A program made the position numbers. Below are positions 21,001-45,000 of a DNA stretch of 56,387 nt, in pieces; the first letter of the stretch is position 1; every line of letters starts with the position of its first letter. Location of the stretch: the NCBI GenBank assembly GCA_035389045.1, contig DAOORA010000023.1:1-56387 (forward strand), in the 5' to 3' direction. Source of the stretch: Bacteroidales bacterium. Its GTDB lineage: Bacteria; Bacteroidota; Bacteroidia; Bacteroidales; CAIWKO01.

Positions 21001-24000
21001 ATCTTCCCATCGACAGCCATGTCATCGGCGAAGTGCTTCATGAAGTTTTTGCCAATGATGAAAAGGACAGGATGAATGTTTCGGTAGTATCGGCCGGTAC
21101 TGCTGCCGATCATTCGCTTATCGGATGCCTGAATTTCACCTTCTTCGACATGAAACGCAAGGTGGTGCGTCTGAAACAAGCCGGCAGAGGCGGTCTGGGT
21201 ACCGTGTTGCGTGATAAAAAAATCAAGGCCGTGGTGGCTAAAGTCCCCGGTGTAAAAGGCAACCTGAACAATGTTGTTGACCTGGATGCGATCATGGAAC
21301 GCGGAAAACGCTTCAACAAGGAAATGCGTGAACTTGACGATTCACAGTGCCAGATGCGCAAGATAGGAACGGCACACCTGACGCACATCATGAATGATTA
21401 TGATCTGTTCCCTACCCATAATTTTAAATACGGAAGTCATCCTGATGCCATAAAAGTTCATGCTGAACGCTACAAGGAACGTTTTACACAGAATATGCCC
21501 GACGGATGCTGGATCGGCTGCAACATGTCGTGCGCCAAAGGTGTGGATAATTACGAACTGAGAACCGGCCCTTATAAAGGGTCTAAGGTGATTGTTGACG
21601 GGCCTGAATATGAAACTGCGGCATCTCTGGGTTCCTGTGCAGGAATTTTCAACCCGGATTTCACTATTGAAGCCAATTTTTATTGTGACACCTATGGTAT
21701 ATGTACCATTACCTGGGGAACTATCCTGGGATTTGTAATGGAGTGTTATGAAAACGGTATCCTTAACGAAGAGCGCACCGGCGGACTGAAACTCAACTTC
21801 GGCAATGAAGACAGCGCAATGGAACTGCTTCATCAGCTTGCCCGTGGAGAAGGTTTTGGCGTTATTGCCGGACAGGGTGTTCATGTGATGAAAGAAATAT
21901 TTGTTTCAAAAGGCTGGGGCGACCCGGGCTTCCTGCAGGATATAGGAATGGAGAACAAAGGCCTTGAGTATTCTCAATATGTCTCCAAAGAATCGCTGGC
22001 ACAGCAGGGCGGTTATGCCATGACCAACAAAGGCCCTCAGCACGACGAAGCCTGGCTGATCTTCATGGACATGGTGAACAACCAGATCCCGACCTTTGAG
22101 AACAAAGCCGAAGCACTGTATTATTTTCCTATGTTCCGTACCTGGTTTGGCCTGCAGGGCTTATGCAAACTCCCCTGGAATGATGTGGAACCCGCTGACA
22201 ATCACGAACAGTCAGAACCGGCCAAAGTACCCGAACATGTTGACAATTATGTTACGATTTACAAAGCCGTCACCGGACTCGAGCTGGACAAAGATTCACT
22301 GATCATCCAATCAGAACGCGTCTATCAGTTCCAGCGTGTTTTCAATATCCGTTGCGGAAAAGGCTTGCGCAGGCACGATGCCCAGCCATACCGCGCCTGC
22401 GGCCCGGTGACCATCGAAGAATATGAATCCCGCCAGGAACGTTACGACAAACAGATGAAAGAAAAAATCGGCATCGACCCGGAAGGAAAATCCACTGAAG
22501 AAAAAATCGACATAACACGTAAATACAGGGAAGAACAATACGAAAAACTGCTCGACGCTGTTTACAAACGCCGCGGATGGACGCCCAACGGAGTGCCTAC
22601 TATTGAACGGCTCAAATCGTTGGGTATGGATCTGCCGGAAGTGCTTGAAATTGTGACACCCCTGCAATAACTACAATTTACATATAACATCGGCAGGCAA
22701 GAACCTCCCTGCACATAAACAACACCAAAACCCTAATGGATTTTGCCTGAACACAATGGCATTTTCTGACAGGGGCTATTAAGGATTATTTCTGAAACTG
22801 CCCGGGGTTGACAACATATCATTGTTTTACTAAGAAGACATAATACAAATTTTACAGCCGGAGCTGATCTCGGAAACCTATTTTGAAACCATTGACCCCG
22901 CCGTCATCGGAAAATCTCAGTCCCAAAAGGCTCTATATCAAATATTGTGTTCCTCTTATCAGCATAATACGTTTTTATCTAAATTTGTGAAAACATTTGC
23001 AGTAGTTATTTTATGGCACAAAAGCCCCTTAATAAAAAGAAAGCAGCCCCAAAAAATCAAAAAAAGCAGGGACCCCGTATTGATAATAGCATGGAAAAAA
23101 TACCGTCATGGGCTATTTATGCGGTGTTGGTTTTTACTTTTTTAATTTATATAAGGGCTCTTTTCAACGGCTTTGCCAGTTACGATGACGACATGTATAT
23201 TTTGGATAATCCATACATCCGTAGTTTTTCCCGGGAGGGTATCCAGCATATTTTTTCCTCTTTTTATTTTGATATTTATCACCCACTGACGACCCTCACC
23301 TATTTATTTGAATACAAACTTTTTGGGACAAATCCATTGCCTTACCACCTGTTGAATATTCTGCTTCATTTGCTCAATACATGGCTTGTTTATCATGTGA
23401 CGCTGAAACTGAGTACGAATAAAATTACATCATTGCTTGTTTCTGTTTTATTTGCCGTACATCCTATGCATGTCGAAAGTGTAGCCTGGATTTCTGAAAG
23501 GAAAGATGTATTATACTCACTGTTCTATCTGTTGTCATTATTGACGTATCTGCGTTATATCGAAACCGGTTATAAGAAAAAGCATTATTCAGCCGCCCTG
23601 TTATTTTTTATTCTTTCCCTACTTTCAAAACCCACAGCAGTTACCATATTTGCGCTCCTGATTGCTATTGATATTTATAAAGGAAGAAAAGTCAGCCTGA
23701 AATCATTAGCCGATAAACTACCCTTTTTAGTTTTGTCACTGATTTTGGTGATTGTTACATTTACGAACTCAGGATCAGGTGGCAATCAATTATTGACCTA
23801 TGGATTTGCAGACAGGATTTTCCTTTTTACTTACGCCCTTTCGTTCTATATCGTGAAAGCTATCATTCCTTTCCATATGTCTGCCATCCATGGTTTTCCC
23901 GATAACTCCGGTGGTACTTTGCCAATAGTGTATTACGCATCATTACCTTTCATCCTGCTCGTTTCAGCGATTTTTATTTATATCGCGGTTCGTGCATTCC

Positions 24001-42000: not shown

Positions 42001-45000
42001 CCTGCAACGACTGGCACCAGTCCCTTGAACTGGGTTACACACCGGCAGAAAGCGTCATCCAACAGTTTTGCAGGTAAAAATAATATTAAATAATGCAACA
42101 GGTCCCCGACAAACACATGGAATTTTTGTTTATGTTTTTATGCTGAAAACTGTTTTAGAAAATATATTTGTTTAACATGTTGGAAAATAACATTTTAACA
42201 CATGGCGGGCAAGACTGAGAAAAAAACACATGTTCCATCACAGAAGAAAAGAAACCGCGGAGATACCGGAGTTCGAAAAAGTTCTTTTCAGATACCTTCC
42301 CGGGCTTTATACGCCTTACTGGTTGTAACGGCAATCATATATACCCGTGCATTATTCAATGGTTTTGCCAGCCTCGACGACGATGATTACCTCTTCAAAA
42401 ACCCTTATATCAAGGATTTCAGTTTCGATGCCATAAAATCTATATTTTCTTCTTTTTATACCGGTAATTATCACCCGCTGACCACCCTTACGTATTTGTT
42501 TGAACTCCATATTTATGGATTGAAACCATTTCCGTATCATCTGTTGAATGTATTGCTGCACCTGGCCAATGCATGGCTGGTTTATAAACTTGCTGAAAAG
42601 CTCAGCGGAACAAGGCTGACCGCACTGCTGGTGTCGGCTTTGTTCGCCCTGCACCCCATGCACGTTGAGTCGGTGGCATGGATCTCTGAACGCAAAGATG
42701 TGCTGTATACTTTTTTTTACCTGGCCTCACTGCTGGCTTACCTTGACTACCTGAAATCAGATCTTAACAAGAAACATTACATGGTCAGCCTGCTGCTTTT
42801 TTTGTTATCACTGTTATCAAAATCTGCTGCAGTCACCCTGCCTGCGCTCATGATCGCCATTGACTTTTATAAATCCAGGAAACCCGGTGTAAAAATGTTT
42901 GTTGAAAAGATACCCTTCGTGGCGCTTTCGTTGTTGTTCGGGATACTGGCCCTGTTTTCACAGCAAGGGGCTATAAAAGAAGTGTCGGCAATTTTTACTT
43001 TTTTTGAACGGATTTTTTTATTTACCTATGCTCTTGCTTTTTACCTGGTCAAAATCATCCTTCCGGTAAAGCTGTCGGCCATGCACTATTATCCGGAGAC
43101 ACACGGCGCCCCCCTGCCCTGGTATTATTATGCTTCATTGCCTTTGCTGTTGTTACTGATCTGGCTGGTGGTGAGAAAAACAGGTTTTTCACGCGAAAAG
43201 CTTTTCGGCGCTTCCTTTTTCCTCATTGTTATCTCCATCATGCTGCAGTTAATTCCTGTCGGAAATGCCATCACGGCTGAACGTTATACCTATGTATCAT
43301 ACATAGGGGTGTTTTATATTGCAGGTCAATGGTTATCGCATCTTCAAAAAGAATCCCTCCGGAAAGCCGCTCTTATAGGGTTCGGAGTCTTTTTACTGGC
43401 TATCTCTTTACTGACATGGAACCGTATCAAAGTTTGGGAAAACGGCAATACCCTTTTCACGGATATCATAAAAAAATATCCCGACAGTTATGTGGCCTGG
43501 TGGATGCGCGGGAATTACAAAAACGAACTGAAAGACTACCAGGGAGCTTTGCAGGATTATAATAAAACCCTTCAGCTATATCCTTACTTTGATCAGTGCC
43601 TGACTAACCGGGGACATATCTTAAATGAGTTAAAAGACTACAAGGCTGCCCTGCGCGATCTGGATCTTGCCATCCAGCTTGACTCTACGGTGGCAGAAAC
43701 ATTTAACAACCGCGGTATGGCCTACGACGGGCTGAGGGACACTGCAGCAGCCATGAAAGATTACAACAAAGCCATCCTGCTTAATCCCGAACTGCAGAAA
43801 GCGTACAACAACAGAGGCGTTCTGAAAGCGACCATAGGGAACCTGCAAAGTGCAATCACAGATATTAATAAGGCCATCAGCCTGAAACCCGACGACGGCG
43901 AAGCATACAGCAACCGCGCCAACATCAGGGCCATGATGAAAGATTTTAAAGGCTCCTTTGATGATTACAGCATCGCCTTACAATATAATCCCAAAGACGA
44001 TATCGTGCTGTTCAACCGGGGGCTGACACGCCTCAACCTGAATGACACCGCGGGCGCCTGTGAAGATATGAACCAATCACTCAGCTACGGAAACAAAATT
44101 GCCGGCGAAGTGATCAGCGCATTATGTAAGTAATAGTTATACCGATATAGTAGCTGTTGACTTTCAAAGTGCAAATGTACTATTTGACGTCTAATACTGG
44201 TACCTCATCGGTATAAAGAGATTTTATATAATCAGTTTTGCTAATTGTAATCATAATAAATTCCTGATTAACAAAATGTAATGAACAAAATCATTATAAC
44301 CTTACTATTCGGGTTATACTCCCTTCCGGGCACGTTCGATACATCATTACTTCTTTAGAATTTCTTTATATTCCCTGGATAAATCTTTATAAAACACTTA
44401 TAAGTTCCACAGTAATTTTGTATAGGTGTTAAATGATAAGGATATGAAAGCATCTTTTTTATTCATGATCTTGGAAACAAACAGCTCACTGGGATATTTT
44501 GCCGGTGCTGTAATCGCTGCATTAATATTTGGTTACCTGATTTACACTCTTATAAAACCAGAGAAATTTTAATCAATGTAAGTATGGAAACTCTTTTGAT
44601 TTTGACAAAGTTTTTTGGAGGTATCATCCTGTTGTTTGTGATAGGTTGGCTGATCGGTCATTTCCTGAAACTTGATAAAATATATGAAGAAACTCAAAGT
44701 GAGTTGAAATCAAAAAACCGTAAAAAATACCATGTATGATATGTTCACAATATTTGATTTTATAGAGATTTTCTTGTTTTTGGGCGTATTGATTTTTTTA
44801 ACACCCATTCTAGGAAATTACATGTATAAAGTATTTGCTGGCAAAAATCATATGATGAAACCCGTTTTGGGGTGGCTTGAAAAATTGACTTATCGTTTTA
44901 GCGGAGTAAACCCTGAGGAAGAAACGAATTGGAAAAGTTACCTCTTTAGCTTGCTGTTGTTTAATTTAATCGGTTTTGTTTTTTTATTTCTCATACAATT

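Follow-up and report, generated by a model that had tools for sequence, protein, structure and literature searches.

Why would a bacterium keep ten similar membrane-protein genes head to tail, and what might their products modify? We addressed this for a window of 56,387 nt (contig C23 of a Bacteroidales genome), in which the first-pass annotation had described tandem TMTC-like GT-C/TPR glycosyltransferases. The host is a sludge bacterium. All ten paralogs were recovered as ORFs on the + strand (23013-44133; Table 1). Their products have 641-680 aa, and an N-terminal membrane domain of ~410 aa and matches to C-terminal TPR families were found in each of them. Pairwise identity among the copies was 43-63%; g1, the most divergent member, shares 48-52% with the others and scored 608 bits with the membrane profile. 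In a six-frame search, PMT_2 exceeded its cut-off of 26.1 bits in 6/10 genes (g1, 36.5; g3, 36.9; g5, 33.1; g8, 35.0 bits among them), g2 fell below it (25.6 bits) and g4 was not listed. The PMT_2 score of g9 was 29.1 bits. g4, separated from g3 by only 30 bp, carries one additional 34-residue TPR (alignment columns 518-551). The start of g6 is likely ATG 33626, where the membrane-profile match begins, rather than the listed TTG 33620, and that of g9 is likely ATG 40149 rather than TTG 40113.

Table 1. Array genes and promoter-like motifs in the window
Feature	Position	Strand	Evidence
g1, GT-C membrane domain + 7 TPR, 649 aa	23013..24962	+	ORF, TPR families
g2, GT-C + TPR, 646 aa	25288..27228	+	ORF, TPR families, membrane profile
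g3, GT-C + TPR, 643 aa	27364..29295	+	ORF, TPR families, membrane profile
g4, GT-C + TPR, 680 aa	29326..31368	+	ORF, TPR families, membrane profile
g5, GT-C + TPR, 645 aa	31474..33411	+	ORF, TPR families, membrane profile
g6, GT-C + TPR, 645 aa	33620..35557	+	ORF, alignment, membrane profile
g7, GT-C + TPR, 641 aa	35711..37636	+	PMT_2 36-37 bits (hmmscan), AF2 model
g8, GT-C + TPR, 643 aa	37785..39716	+	ORF, TPR families, membrane profile
g9, GT-C + TPR, 654 aa	40113..42077	+	ORF, alignment, membrane profile
g10, GT-C + TPR, 643 aa	42202..44133	+	orthologues in G017, G014, G002
TAnnTTTG promoter-like motif	22980..22987	+	33 nt upstream of g1 start
TAnnTTTG motif, other starts	27331 (g3), 31433 (g5), 33588 (g6), 40104 (g9), 42163 (g10)		

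A census with a profile of the ten array membrane domains against 5104 ORFs of ≥100 aa on 135 contigs (E<1e-3) returned exactly 42 full-length paralogs (604-864 aa), the number counted earlier. The arrays listed before were also found (ten genes on C23, six and two on C11 at 38562-51462 and 63565-67975, four on C5, three on C51), as were the two TMEM260-like genes (PF11028; C19 and C47). The conserved DD, H-P and K were confirmed across the 42 paralogs (g7 numbering: D58, D59 and K205, 42/42; H150, 41/42; P151, 40/42). Median identity among the 42 was 28.5% in the membrane part and 27.6% in the TPR part, compared with the earlier values of 25% and 28%. The statement that the copies are old holds for this genome-wide set but not for the array, a much closer clade (medians 57.7 and 51.1%). 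The 16-41 matches claimed for 22 other genomes of the family were not reproduced: a membrane-only profile gave 8-30 (and 44 in G000). The earlier counts were probably inflated by TPR matches, because a whole gene had served as query.

Modelled with AF2 from the 42-paralogue alignment, the membrane domain of g7 reached a pLDDT of 90.1 and a pTM of 0.89, and all 18 Foldseek matches at E≤1e-3 were GT-C enzymes; at the sequence level, family profiles retrieved no relative of solved structure. VIA-align superposed the model on Pmt4 (Z 21.6, rmsd 4.1, 330 aligned), STT3 (Z 21.1, rmsd 4.9, 314 aligned), Pmt1-Pmt2 (Z 20.4, rmsd 4.0, 326 aligned) and ArnT (Z 19.7, rmsd 4.3, 316 aligned). Protein-modifying PMT and STT3 and lipid-modifying ArnT are tied within ~2 Z, and on this model the fold scores cannot tell them apart. 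For g10, a full-length ESM Atlas model is available (pTM 0.83). The N-tail contains seven K/R against one D/E, and short K/R-rich loops lie at 221-227, 323-337 and 378-386, so that the TPRs, which follow the 11th helix, fall on the periplasmic side. The array proteins are thus predicted to comprise an 11-helix GT-C membrane domain with cytoplasmic N-terminus and a periplasmic seven-TPR domain. A C-terminal Cys pair, invariant in the ten array genes and present in 15/42 paralogs, is consistent with an oxidising compartment.

The closest counterparts in architecture are animal TMTC1-4 (CAZy GT105), ER O-mannosyltransferases of cadherins and protocadherins, which likewise have an eleven-helix GT-C domain followed by a non-cytoplasmic TPR array and occur as several paralogs per genome (4, compared with 42 copies here). 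In both, the first loop carries DD, the second R-x-D, the third K...T and the fifth ERxxY, which is the order of motifs M1, M3, M4 and M7 in the accessible part of PMC7801869. The Arg of R-x-D is kept in 36/42 paralogs and the last motif reads E (28) or D (12), R (33) or H (9), and Y (38) or F (4). The predicted fold, the intact catalytic-type residues and the predicted periplasmic TPRs agree with a GT-C/TPR glycosyltransferase. Strict TMTC membership did not hold for the array: no TMTC_DUF1736 match was obtained for any of its ten genes, they lack the DW motif, and another residue replaces the metal-binding Glu. Set against the published motifs, the array genes also lack PxxP, SHKSYRP is reduced to Y-x-P-L-T, and the Glu of KE(T/Q)xxT, which follows the invariant Lys, is Ser or Pro (Glu in only 13/42 paralogs). 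The donor here would be a bacterial polyprenyl phosphate rather than dolichyl phosphate. Four distant paralogs elsewhere in the genome do match TMTC_DUF1736, and the feature neighbours in the ESM Atlas include a chordate TMTC_DUF1736 cluster (rank 17, score 0.93), which we take as a lead only.

We also compared other GT-C families. TMEM260/PF11028 proteins combine 11 helices with luminal or periplasmic TPRs, and this genome encodes them in addition to the array, but they belong to a separate Pfam family and have ~1030-1050 aa here; in human TMEM260, the accessible part of a preprint describes a Rossmann-like domain between membrane part and TPR (10.64898/2026.03.17.711096). PMT/POMT enzymes (GT39; PDB 6p25, 9i5l, 9e61) were the best structural matches (Z 20.4-21.6) and share the PMT_2 clan and Asp-based first-loop catalysis. 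The array proteins, however, have a TPR tail instead of the loop-5 MIR beta-trefoil and no PF02366 match, and it is the PMTs that act as dimers on Ser/Thr-rich or unfolded stretches. STT3/PglB/AglB (GT66; Z 17.6-21.1) have the GT-C fold and modify proteins at the non-cytoplasmic face, but their 13 helices, WWD-motif periplasmic domain and pyrophosphate-linked oligosaccharide donor are absent here. ArnT (GT83; PDB 5ezm, 5f15) and Gtr enzymes are bacterial inner-membrane GT-C proteins that receive an undecaprenyl-phosphate monosaccharide from a GtrB/ArnC-type GT2; ArnT differs in having 13 helices, in its small periplasmic domain, which contains no TPR, in modifying lipid A and in being usually single-copy.

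The array is one clade, so far found only in this genus; in a wide tree, a 30-row clade contains nine array genes and g1 lies just outside. Its locus is collinear (Rho-AFOR-[array]-LemA-DUF2207), with ten genes here and five in G017, and four species with the syntenic locus have 10, 5, at least 2 and 1 clade members. In G017, g7, g9 and g10 have 1:1 orthologues (66.8, 70.6 and 69.6% identity). The array orthologues are 67-71% identical, whereas Rho, AFOR and LemA next to the array reach 85-93%. g10, whose orthologues in G017, G014 and G002 group with support 99, is the conserved 'core' member. g5 is sister to g8 (support 97), with which g3 also clusters, and g6 to g1 (support 98) in a tree containing the G017/G014/G002 orthologues. 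Since clade copy number varies at a syntenic locus while 1:1 orthologues are kept, we conclude from these sequences that the ten genes are a birth-and-death family.

Which acceptors could such copies serve? Within the array proteins, conservation is highest in the membrane core (entropy 0.96, compared with 1.23 for the TPR part), and variation peaks at exposed TPR positions. The most variable were 33, 2, 12, 9, 18, 5 and 1; we take positions 2, 5, 9, 12, 13, 33 and 34 to be the hypervariable ones of the ligand face. This pattern is weak evidence of divergent specificity, because it is expected in any TPR family. A precedent for TPR-based acceptor choice comes from human TMEM260, whose TPR part is reported, in the accessible part of the same preprint (10.64898/2026.03.17.711096), to be sufficient to recruit the acceptor peptide. 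Neither of two weak tests supported the proposed link to T9SS-secreted cadherin/Ig cargo: the T9SS sorting domain occurred in 5/106 flank genes scanned, about the genome-wide rate, and copy number did not follow T9SS-domain candidates across 23 family genomes once genome size was removed (partial r 0.00). Our literature search found no acceptor, sugar or activity for any bacterial family member.

The lipid-linked-sugar donor suggested earlier is matched by polyprenyl-phosphate-sugar synthase genes. The genome holds six full-length GtrB/ArnC-like genes, the best at 5e-48 to the Synechocystis sll0501 chain (PDB 5ekp), which we take to be GtrB, and at 3e-32 to ArnC, as well as two GtrA-like genes. 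The window array itself is flanked by Rho, aldehyde:ferredoxin oxidoreductase and the Kdp operon, and no gene for a donor synthase, a flippase or a candidate acceptor lies next to it.

We therefore favour, with a probability of about 0.55, an accessory birth-and-death array of periplasmic GT-C enzymes that use a polyprenyl-phosphate-sugar and choose acceptors, likely Ser/Thr of exported proteins, through their TPRs. One of the six synthases would make the donor on the cytoplasmic face, and the donor would then be flipped. The active site would face the periplasm, formed by the invariant Asp-Asp and Y-x-P-L-T stretch of the first periplasmic loop with R-K-D (loop 2), the invariant Lys (loop 3) and E-R-x-x-Y (loop 5). 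The enzyme would take a single sugar and move it to an acceptor bound by the periplasmic domain, in which a Cys-pair cap closes the seven TPRs, and paralogs would differ in the acceptors that their TPR surfaces recruit. The genes, the fold, the motifs, the logic of the topology, the copy numbers, the synteny and the orthology are shown by the analysis, whereas we infer the donor class, single-sugar transfer and TPR-determined specificity; protein acceptors are plausible, and that they are the acceptors and mannose the sugar we likewise infer. The array would add to, rather than replace, the phylum-wide TMEM260-like enzyme.

Gtr-type glycosylation has three components, GtrA, GtrB and GtrC, and the paralogs could instead act as its third, decorating LPS core or O-antigen, capsule, exopolysaccharide or, as ArnT does, lipid A with side-branch sugars taken from undecaprenyl-phosphate sugars, while the TPRs dock onto export or assembly machinery. 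TPR domains are also found in polysaccharide export scaffolds. ArnT fits the g7 model nearly as well as do the protein mannosyltransferases, the genome contains both GtrB-like and GtrA-like genes, on C9 a GtrB-like gene adjoins a TPR-less PMT_2 gene, and the eight C11 paralogs, one subfamily, lie among genes of GT8 (three), GT9 (heptosyltransferase family), GT2 and GT4, as expected of glycolipid or polysaccharide modifiers. Yet glycan-synthesis genes are absent beside the window array, ArnT and GtrC-type enzymes lack TPRs whereas the GT-C + TPR fusion is common to TMTC and TMEM260, and the TMEM260 TPRs are reported to bind the acceptor peptide. As the three of ten array genes scanned against NCBIfam received neither an ArnT nor another lipid-modifier name, and 42 separately kept paralogs are many for glycolipid decoration, we regard this alternative as serious but rather unlikely.

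Many of the copies might have lost activity and serve as scaffolds, or be decaying duplicates left by selfish amplification of the array, which could account for the uneven copy number of the clade within the genus; in addition, contigs of other samples part from the window at 39732 in three runs, and this shared point suggests that array structure differs between strains. Either reading is highly improbable, however, given that all 42 ORFs are full length with unbroken frames, DD and Lys are retained throughout, the membrane core is best conserved, orthologues persist across species and the copies are too dissimilar for recent repeats. Even less credible is the idea that one or more of the paralogs initiate the general Bacteroidota D(S/T)(A/I/L/V/M/T) O-glycosylation, as O-OTase or first mannosyltransferase; for this system, the accessible part of a review proposes seeking homologues of eukaryotic O-mannosylation (PMC12871550), enzymes that this family resembles. 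The general system is phylum-wide, but the window family occurs in only 83/151 genomes of the order and 51/201 of the phylum (all ≥90% complete), and PMT_2 had no match in the Bacteroides thetaiotaomicron control. TMEM260-like genes, present at 1-5 copies in 151/151 and 201/201 genomes, suit initiation far better. The array, patchy and expanded, is thus accessory and not the missing initiator.

The claim of a new bacterial lineage with a very large set stands in so far as 42 copies is the highest number among the genomes sampled. As to novelty it should be moderated: the family is huge and widespread (109,118 clusters at 50% identity, E≤1e-10), other families of the order gave 12-25 matches, JGI annotation already labels relatives 'protein O-mannosyl-transferase', and the accessible part of PMC7801869 already notes full-length bacterial TMTC homologues.

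Contigs from two RNA libraries (≥99% identical) fall within most array genes, with none on g7; this is weak evidence of expression, as the contigs may contain DNA. TAnnTTTG, presumably the Bacteroidota -7 promoter element, precedes the start of 6/10 array genes by 33-45 nt, compared with a mean of 0.21 and a maximum of 3 genes when the upstream 100 nt were shuffled 2000 times. By this motif, the majority of array genes seem to have their own promoter.

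The array consists of ten plus-strand ORFs (g1 to g10) of 641–680 aa, separated by gaps of 30–396 bp, with Rho and aldehyde:ferredoxin oxidoreductase (AFOR) genes upstream and KdpABC, KdpDE, LemA and DUF2207 protein genes downstream. Aligned end to end, the ten proteins were 48–52% identical to the first, and each carried an N-terminal hydrophobic domain of ~410 residues and C-terminal TPR families (10/10). We searched all 5104 ORFs of at least 100 aa in the 135-contig assembly with a profile built from the ten membrane domains and obtained exactly 42 ORFs at E<1e-3 (604–864 aa). 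They clustered as ten on the contig of the window, six and two on contig C11, four on C5, three on C51 and several pairs. This exact count and clustering confirm the first-pass annotation, which had described 42 paralogues with tandem arrays and, in addition, two TMEM260-like genes; the latter were recovered as the only two genes of the genome matching PF11028 (on C19 and C47), a family that no window gene matched. The array is real and beyond chance.

Coordinates of the array, of features around it and of related loci on other contigs of the same genome
Feature	Contig	Position (strand)	Locus	Content
GT-C/TPR array	window	23013-44133 (+)		g1 to g10
Kdp operon	window	44732-52578		KdpA, KdpB, KdpC, KdpD, KdpE; between array and LemA/DUF2207
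Peptidase_S46 gene	window	12933-15149 (-)		DPP7/DPP11-type
Peptidase_S46 gene	C40	33336-35627		DPP7/DPP11-type; just upstream of C40 paralogue
Large ORF	window	3277-6150 (-)		957 aa
Small ORF	window	1180-1899 (-)		239 aa
Transposase fragment	window	2380-2964 (-)		IS200-like Y1; beside the 957-aa and 239-aa ORFs
T9SS sorting-domain gene and GT-C/TPR paralogue	C104	139-3664	L086	506-aa sorting-domain gene; paralogue of TMTC_DUF1736 type starts 10 bp past it
GtrB-like GT2	C104	7046-8029	L086	with SDR, GNAT and EamA genes; 3.4 kb from the TMTC_DUF1736-type paralogue, other strand
Glycan-synthesis cluster	C11	52561-63458, 72317-75404	L067, L068	three GT8, B12-radical SAM, GT4-like, GT9 heptosyltransferase-family gene, GT2; flanked by eight C11 paralogues; beyond the paralogue pair, GT4 and two more GT2
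Genes after four-gene array	C5	16319-18101	L069	directly after array: NAD-dependent epimerase/dehydratase and 3-oxo-5-alpha-steroid 4-dehydrogenase family protein (PF02544)
GtrA/GtrB-like run	C64	4840-11723	L063:3840-10724	GtrA-like, GtrB-like GT2, radical SAM, C-methyltransferase, B12-radical SAM, epimerase
TMEM260-like GT-C (PF11028)	C47	30790-33924	L088:12791-15925	1044 aa
TMEM260-like GT-C (PF11028)	C19	frame holding 25953-26486		1034 aa

An AF2 model of the g7 membrane domain, built on the 42-paralogue alignment, reached a pLDDT of 90.1 and a pTM of 0.89. All 18 Foldseek matches of this model at E≤1e-3 were GT-C enzymes, and VIA-align superposed it on GT-C structures with Z 17–21.6 over 300–330 residues. 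By the model, the window proteins clearly have the GT-C fold. The best superpositions, on Pmt4 (Z 21.6, rmsd 4.1, 330 aligned), STT3 (Z 21.1), Pmt1-Pmt2 (Z 20.4) and ArnT (Z 19.7), scored too alike to be told apart; the fold identifies a GT-C enzyme but not the class of acceptor. When PDB sequences were searched with the 10-member membrane profile and then with the 42-member one, there were two chance matches (E 0.74) and then none, hence no solved relative; it is the predicted fold that carries the case for homology to solved GT-C enzymes.

The putative catalytic residues were strongly conserved. In g7 numbering, D58 and D59 of loop 1 were kept in 42/42 paralogues, including all ten window genes, and a Lys in loop 3 was likewise invariant (42/42). 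The His and Pro of the stretch HPMHVES occurred in 41/42 and 40/42 paralogues, respectively, the Arg of an R-K-D motif in 36/42, and E/D-R/H-x-x-Y/F in nearly all 42. In view of the conserved catalytic residues and intact frames, we consider it very unlikely that the copies are pseudogenes or scaffolds.

The N-terminal tail carries seven Lys/Arg and one acidic residue, and short Lys/Arg-rich loops (residues 221–227, 323–337 and 378–386) alternate with the motif-bearing loops. This gives a predicted topology of 11 helices with the N-terminus in and the TPRs out, which is the topology described for TMTC (PMC6801728). The window genes thus share with TMTC an 11-helix GT-C domain followed by TPRs predicted to be non-cytoplasmic. 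Seven TMTC motifs in loops EL1–EL5 (DD, SHKSYRP, RxD, KE(T/Q)xxT, DW, PxxP and ERxxY; M1 to M7) are described by Eisenhaber et al. 2021 (PMC7801869). Measured against that description, the window genes have M1, M3 and M7 in identical loop order, but M2 is cut down to Y-x-P-L-T, and in M4 the Lys and Thr are kept while the metal-binding Glu is replaced by Ser or Pro (13/42 paralogues have Glu). Neither M5 nor M6 was seen in the ten window genes.

The TMTC_DUF1736 family (PF08409), which covers the segment between TMTC helices 7 and 8, matched 0/10 window genes and only four distant paralogues among the 42 (on C41, C47, C31 and C104), of which one or two passed its cut-off depending on the search. 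The only leads to sequence similarity with animal TMTC1-4 are an ESM Atlas neighbour cluster, the JGI name of relatives, 'protein O-mannosyl-transferase' (NCBI: 'tetratricopeptide repeat protein'), and the BLAST matches of the first-pass annotation. The claim that these are the bacterial counterparts of animal TMTCs is partly supported. On the best-supported reading of model and alignments, the window proteins would work like TMTC enzymes yet lack part of what defines TMTC membership.

With the curated cut-off of Pfam PMT_2 (PF13231; 26.1 bits), hmmscan accepted 1/10 window genes and 7/42 paralogues (9/42 at E≤0.1), and a six-frame genome search placed 6/10 window genes over the cut-off and one just under it, with g4, g6 and g10 unlisted. 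Neither PF02366 nor the MIR domain (PMT/POMT, GT39) turned up when the ten genes and the 42 membrane parts were scanned against Pfam. NCBIfam scans of three of the ten window genes gave only sub-threshold TPR-type families and no ArnT-type name. ArnT (GT83) resembles the window proteins in fold only; it has 13 helices and no TPR, as opposed to 11 helices plus TPR here.

The TPR part, which in g7 spans residues ~394–631, comprises seven 34-residue repeats with conserved positions Y4, R7, G8, D16, Y17, A20, D23 and P32. A C-terminal cap follows, in which two Cys 22 residues apart (10/10 window genes, 15/42 paralogues) would fit a disulfide formed in the periplasm. For g10, a full-length ESM Atlas model exists (pTM 0.83). 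Among the ten proteins, mean column entropy rose from 0.96 in the membrane part to 1.23 in the TPR part, and the most variable repeat positions were 33, 2, 12, 9, 18, 5 and 1. These overlap with positions 2, 5, 9, 12, 13, 33 and 34, which we take to be the hypervariable ligand-face positions of TPRs. The overlap fits divergent ligand choice, though such variation would be expected of any exposed residues.

Six full-length genes related to GtrB/ArnC polyprenyl-phosphate glycosyltransferases, and two GtrA-like genes, are present in the genome. The GtrB-like gene on C64 matched the Synechocystis sll0501 chain (PDB 5ekp), presumably GtrB, at 5e-48 and ArnC at 3e-32. These genes point, if only indirectly, to a polyprenyl-phosphate-linked sugar as the putative donor; none of them adjoins the window array. 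In the best-supported mechanism, predicted from model and sequence, a polyprenyl-phosphate donor would give up its sugar in the periplasm to an acceptor picked by the TPR part. C104, a short contig, is the only locus that joins a candidate acceptor, a transferase and a donor synthase, a single case that is suggestive. The GtrA/GtrB-like run on C64 resembles a Gtr-type system that would handle an unusual methylated sugar, and a TPR-less PMT_2 gene lies ~9 kb from it on the same contig. The PF02544 family, which takes in eukaryotic polyprenol reductase, has a member on C5 that may bear on the lipid carrier.

We consider proteins the probable acceptors and put the probability of this at roughly 0.55. 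The alternative that a glycolipid or polysaccharide is modified seems less likely. The C11 paralogues sit among GT8, GT9, GT2 and GT4 genes, which keeps that alternative alive for their branch. Beyond the C11 paralogue pair lie one further GT4 and two more GT2 genes. Surroundings differed from locus to locus, and the flanks of 16 other paralogue loci had no recurrent partner (106/124 flank ORFs scanned, 18 left out). Peptidase_S46 genes occur both in the window and beside the C40 paralogue, probably by coincidence. At the left end of the window, the 957-aa and 239-aa ORFs had no Pfam match at E≤1e-3.

The first-pass annotation had proposed that each TPR part picks a class of T9SS-secreted surface proteins. 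The genome is rich in such cargo, with at least 150 Por_Secre_tail sorting-domain matches when 150 of 302 candidates were scored. The domain was found in 5/106 flank genes scanned at the 16 other paralogue loci, about the background rate and without enrichment. Across the 23 family genomes, paralogue copy number and T9SS-domain candidates gave a Spearman coefficient of 0.31 (p 0.15), and a partial r of 0.003 with genome size removed; the T9SS figures are loose first-look counts, and the genomes are kin and so not independent. Thus the proposal gained no support from the flank and copy-number tests, which are both weak and neither support nor exclude it.

We determined the distribution of the family with a membrane profile of the 42 paralogues (E≤1e-5). 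Matches were present in every one of the 23 genomes of the taxonomic family, 44 in the genome under study and 8–30 in the others. At the level of the order, 83/151 genomes (at least 90% complete) matched in a search with capped copy counts, and five rich genomes from other families, counted in full, had 25, 17, 16, 12 and 12; at the level of the phylum, 51/201 genomes matched, mostly with 1–6 matches each. The genome under study is the richest sampled, as the idea of a lineage with a very large GT-C set would have it, but multi-copy sets also exist outside its family. In a global profile search of clusters at 50% identity, 138,643 representatives matched at E≤1e-3 and 109,118 at E≤1e-10, and ESM Atlas neighbours came from Verrucomicrobiota, Gemmatimonadota, Thermodesulfobacteriota, Acidobacteriota and others. 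Full-length bacterial TMTC homologues were already noted by Eisenhaber et al. (PMC7801869). The literature searched, with subscription-only papers and supplements outside its scope, contained no TMTC-like expansion in bacteria, as had been noted before, and no characterised bacterial member.

According to a 2025 review (PMC12871550), the phylum-wide O-glycan of Bacteroidota has mannose as its reducing-end sugar, its initiating transferase is undiscovered, and a search for homologues of eukaryotic O-mannosylation is advised. The patchy spread of the window family (83/151 and 51/201 genomes) rules it out as this phylum-wide initiator. The TMEM260-like genes were present in 151/151 genomes of the order and 201/201 of the phylum; of the 14 control genomes, that of Bacteroides thetaiotaomicron alone had them. 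This contrast bears on a question that the review treats as open (PMC12871550): it points away from the window family and to the TMEM260-like gene as a candidate for the initiating O-mannosyltransferase of general Bacteroidota O-glycosylation, and it makes the array an accessory layer. No paper in the literature searched pairs TMEM260 or DUF2723 with Bacteroid*. We tentatively suggest, as a possibility that is on balance doubtful, that Bacteroidota run a two-tier, animal-like protein O-glycosylation. In it, a universal TMEM260-like GT-C would start the general O-mannose-linked glycan, and in some lineages large, fast-turnover batteries of TMTC-like GT-C/TPR enzymes with their own promoters would act on exported proteins, the variable face of each TPR picking different ones.

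TMTC- and TMEM260-type O-mannosyltransferases are important in human development, and to our knowledge the choice of acceptors by their TPR parts is only starting to be understood. Were the two-tier arrangement true, the ten-gene array would amount to a natural library: acceptor-recognition modules mounted on a single conserved catalytic chassis. With a constant catalytic core and a variable TPR surface, specificity-determining positions should be readable from natural variation. The 42-copy genome suits such a comparative study, with ten of its copies in one collinear array that has clear orthologues in sister species.

Scores against the ten-domain profile were bimodal, with the array clade at ~630–705 bits and all other paralogues below 400. 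Members of the array clade occurred in three other species of the genus, four in G017, two in G014 (77% complete) and one in G002, and in neither of two other genera of the family. G017 has a syntenic array (Rho-AFOR-[five genes]-LemA-DUF2207), one of whose five genes is divergent (357 bits only). The Kdp operon is missing at this place, where LemA directly follows the array; the difference is an insertion or a loss at the array's edge.

In a maximum-likelihood tree, g7, g9 and g10 paired 1:1 with G017 genes in conserved order along the array, g10 also with G014 and G002 genes, and g1+g6 and g5+g8 formed pairs without partners in these three species. A wider tree with database relatives agreed with the first and added partners for g2 and g4. 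Orthologue pairs with G017 were 67–71% identical, compared with 85–93% for Rho, AFOR and LemA and 66% for DUF2207. The array has undergone birth-and-death evolution of fairly fast-evolving genes with no recent amplification.

The motif TAnnTTTG lies 33–45 nt before the start codon of 6/10 genes (2000 shuffles: mean 0.21, maximum 3). We take it to be the −7 element of Bacteroidota promoters, so a separate promoter is probable for most copies. Scans for sigma-70 promoters (56 vs 50.6 expected) and intrinsic terminators (19 vs 19.2) were no better than shuffles.

Near-identical DNA was present in activated-sludge and anaerobic-digester metagenomes. Two metatranscriptome runs from different studies contained contigs at least 99% identical to pieces of g1–g6, g9 and g10, with depth and no listed piece for g8 and nothing for g7. 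These contigs are a weak hint of transcription of the array and no proof of it, and the gap at g7 proves nothing. In three runs (one DNA, two RNA-library), contigs matched the window rightwards from 39732, between g8 and g9, and carried identical foreign sequence to the left. Runs X2 and X3 had more loose contig ends within the array, and a single low-depth contig of X3, possibly an assembly chimera, joined 35906 to 41327 out of register. The common break at 39732 with its shared foreign sequence indicates that the stretch of array preceding g9 differs between strains, which thus appear to differ in array make-up.
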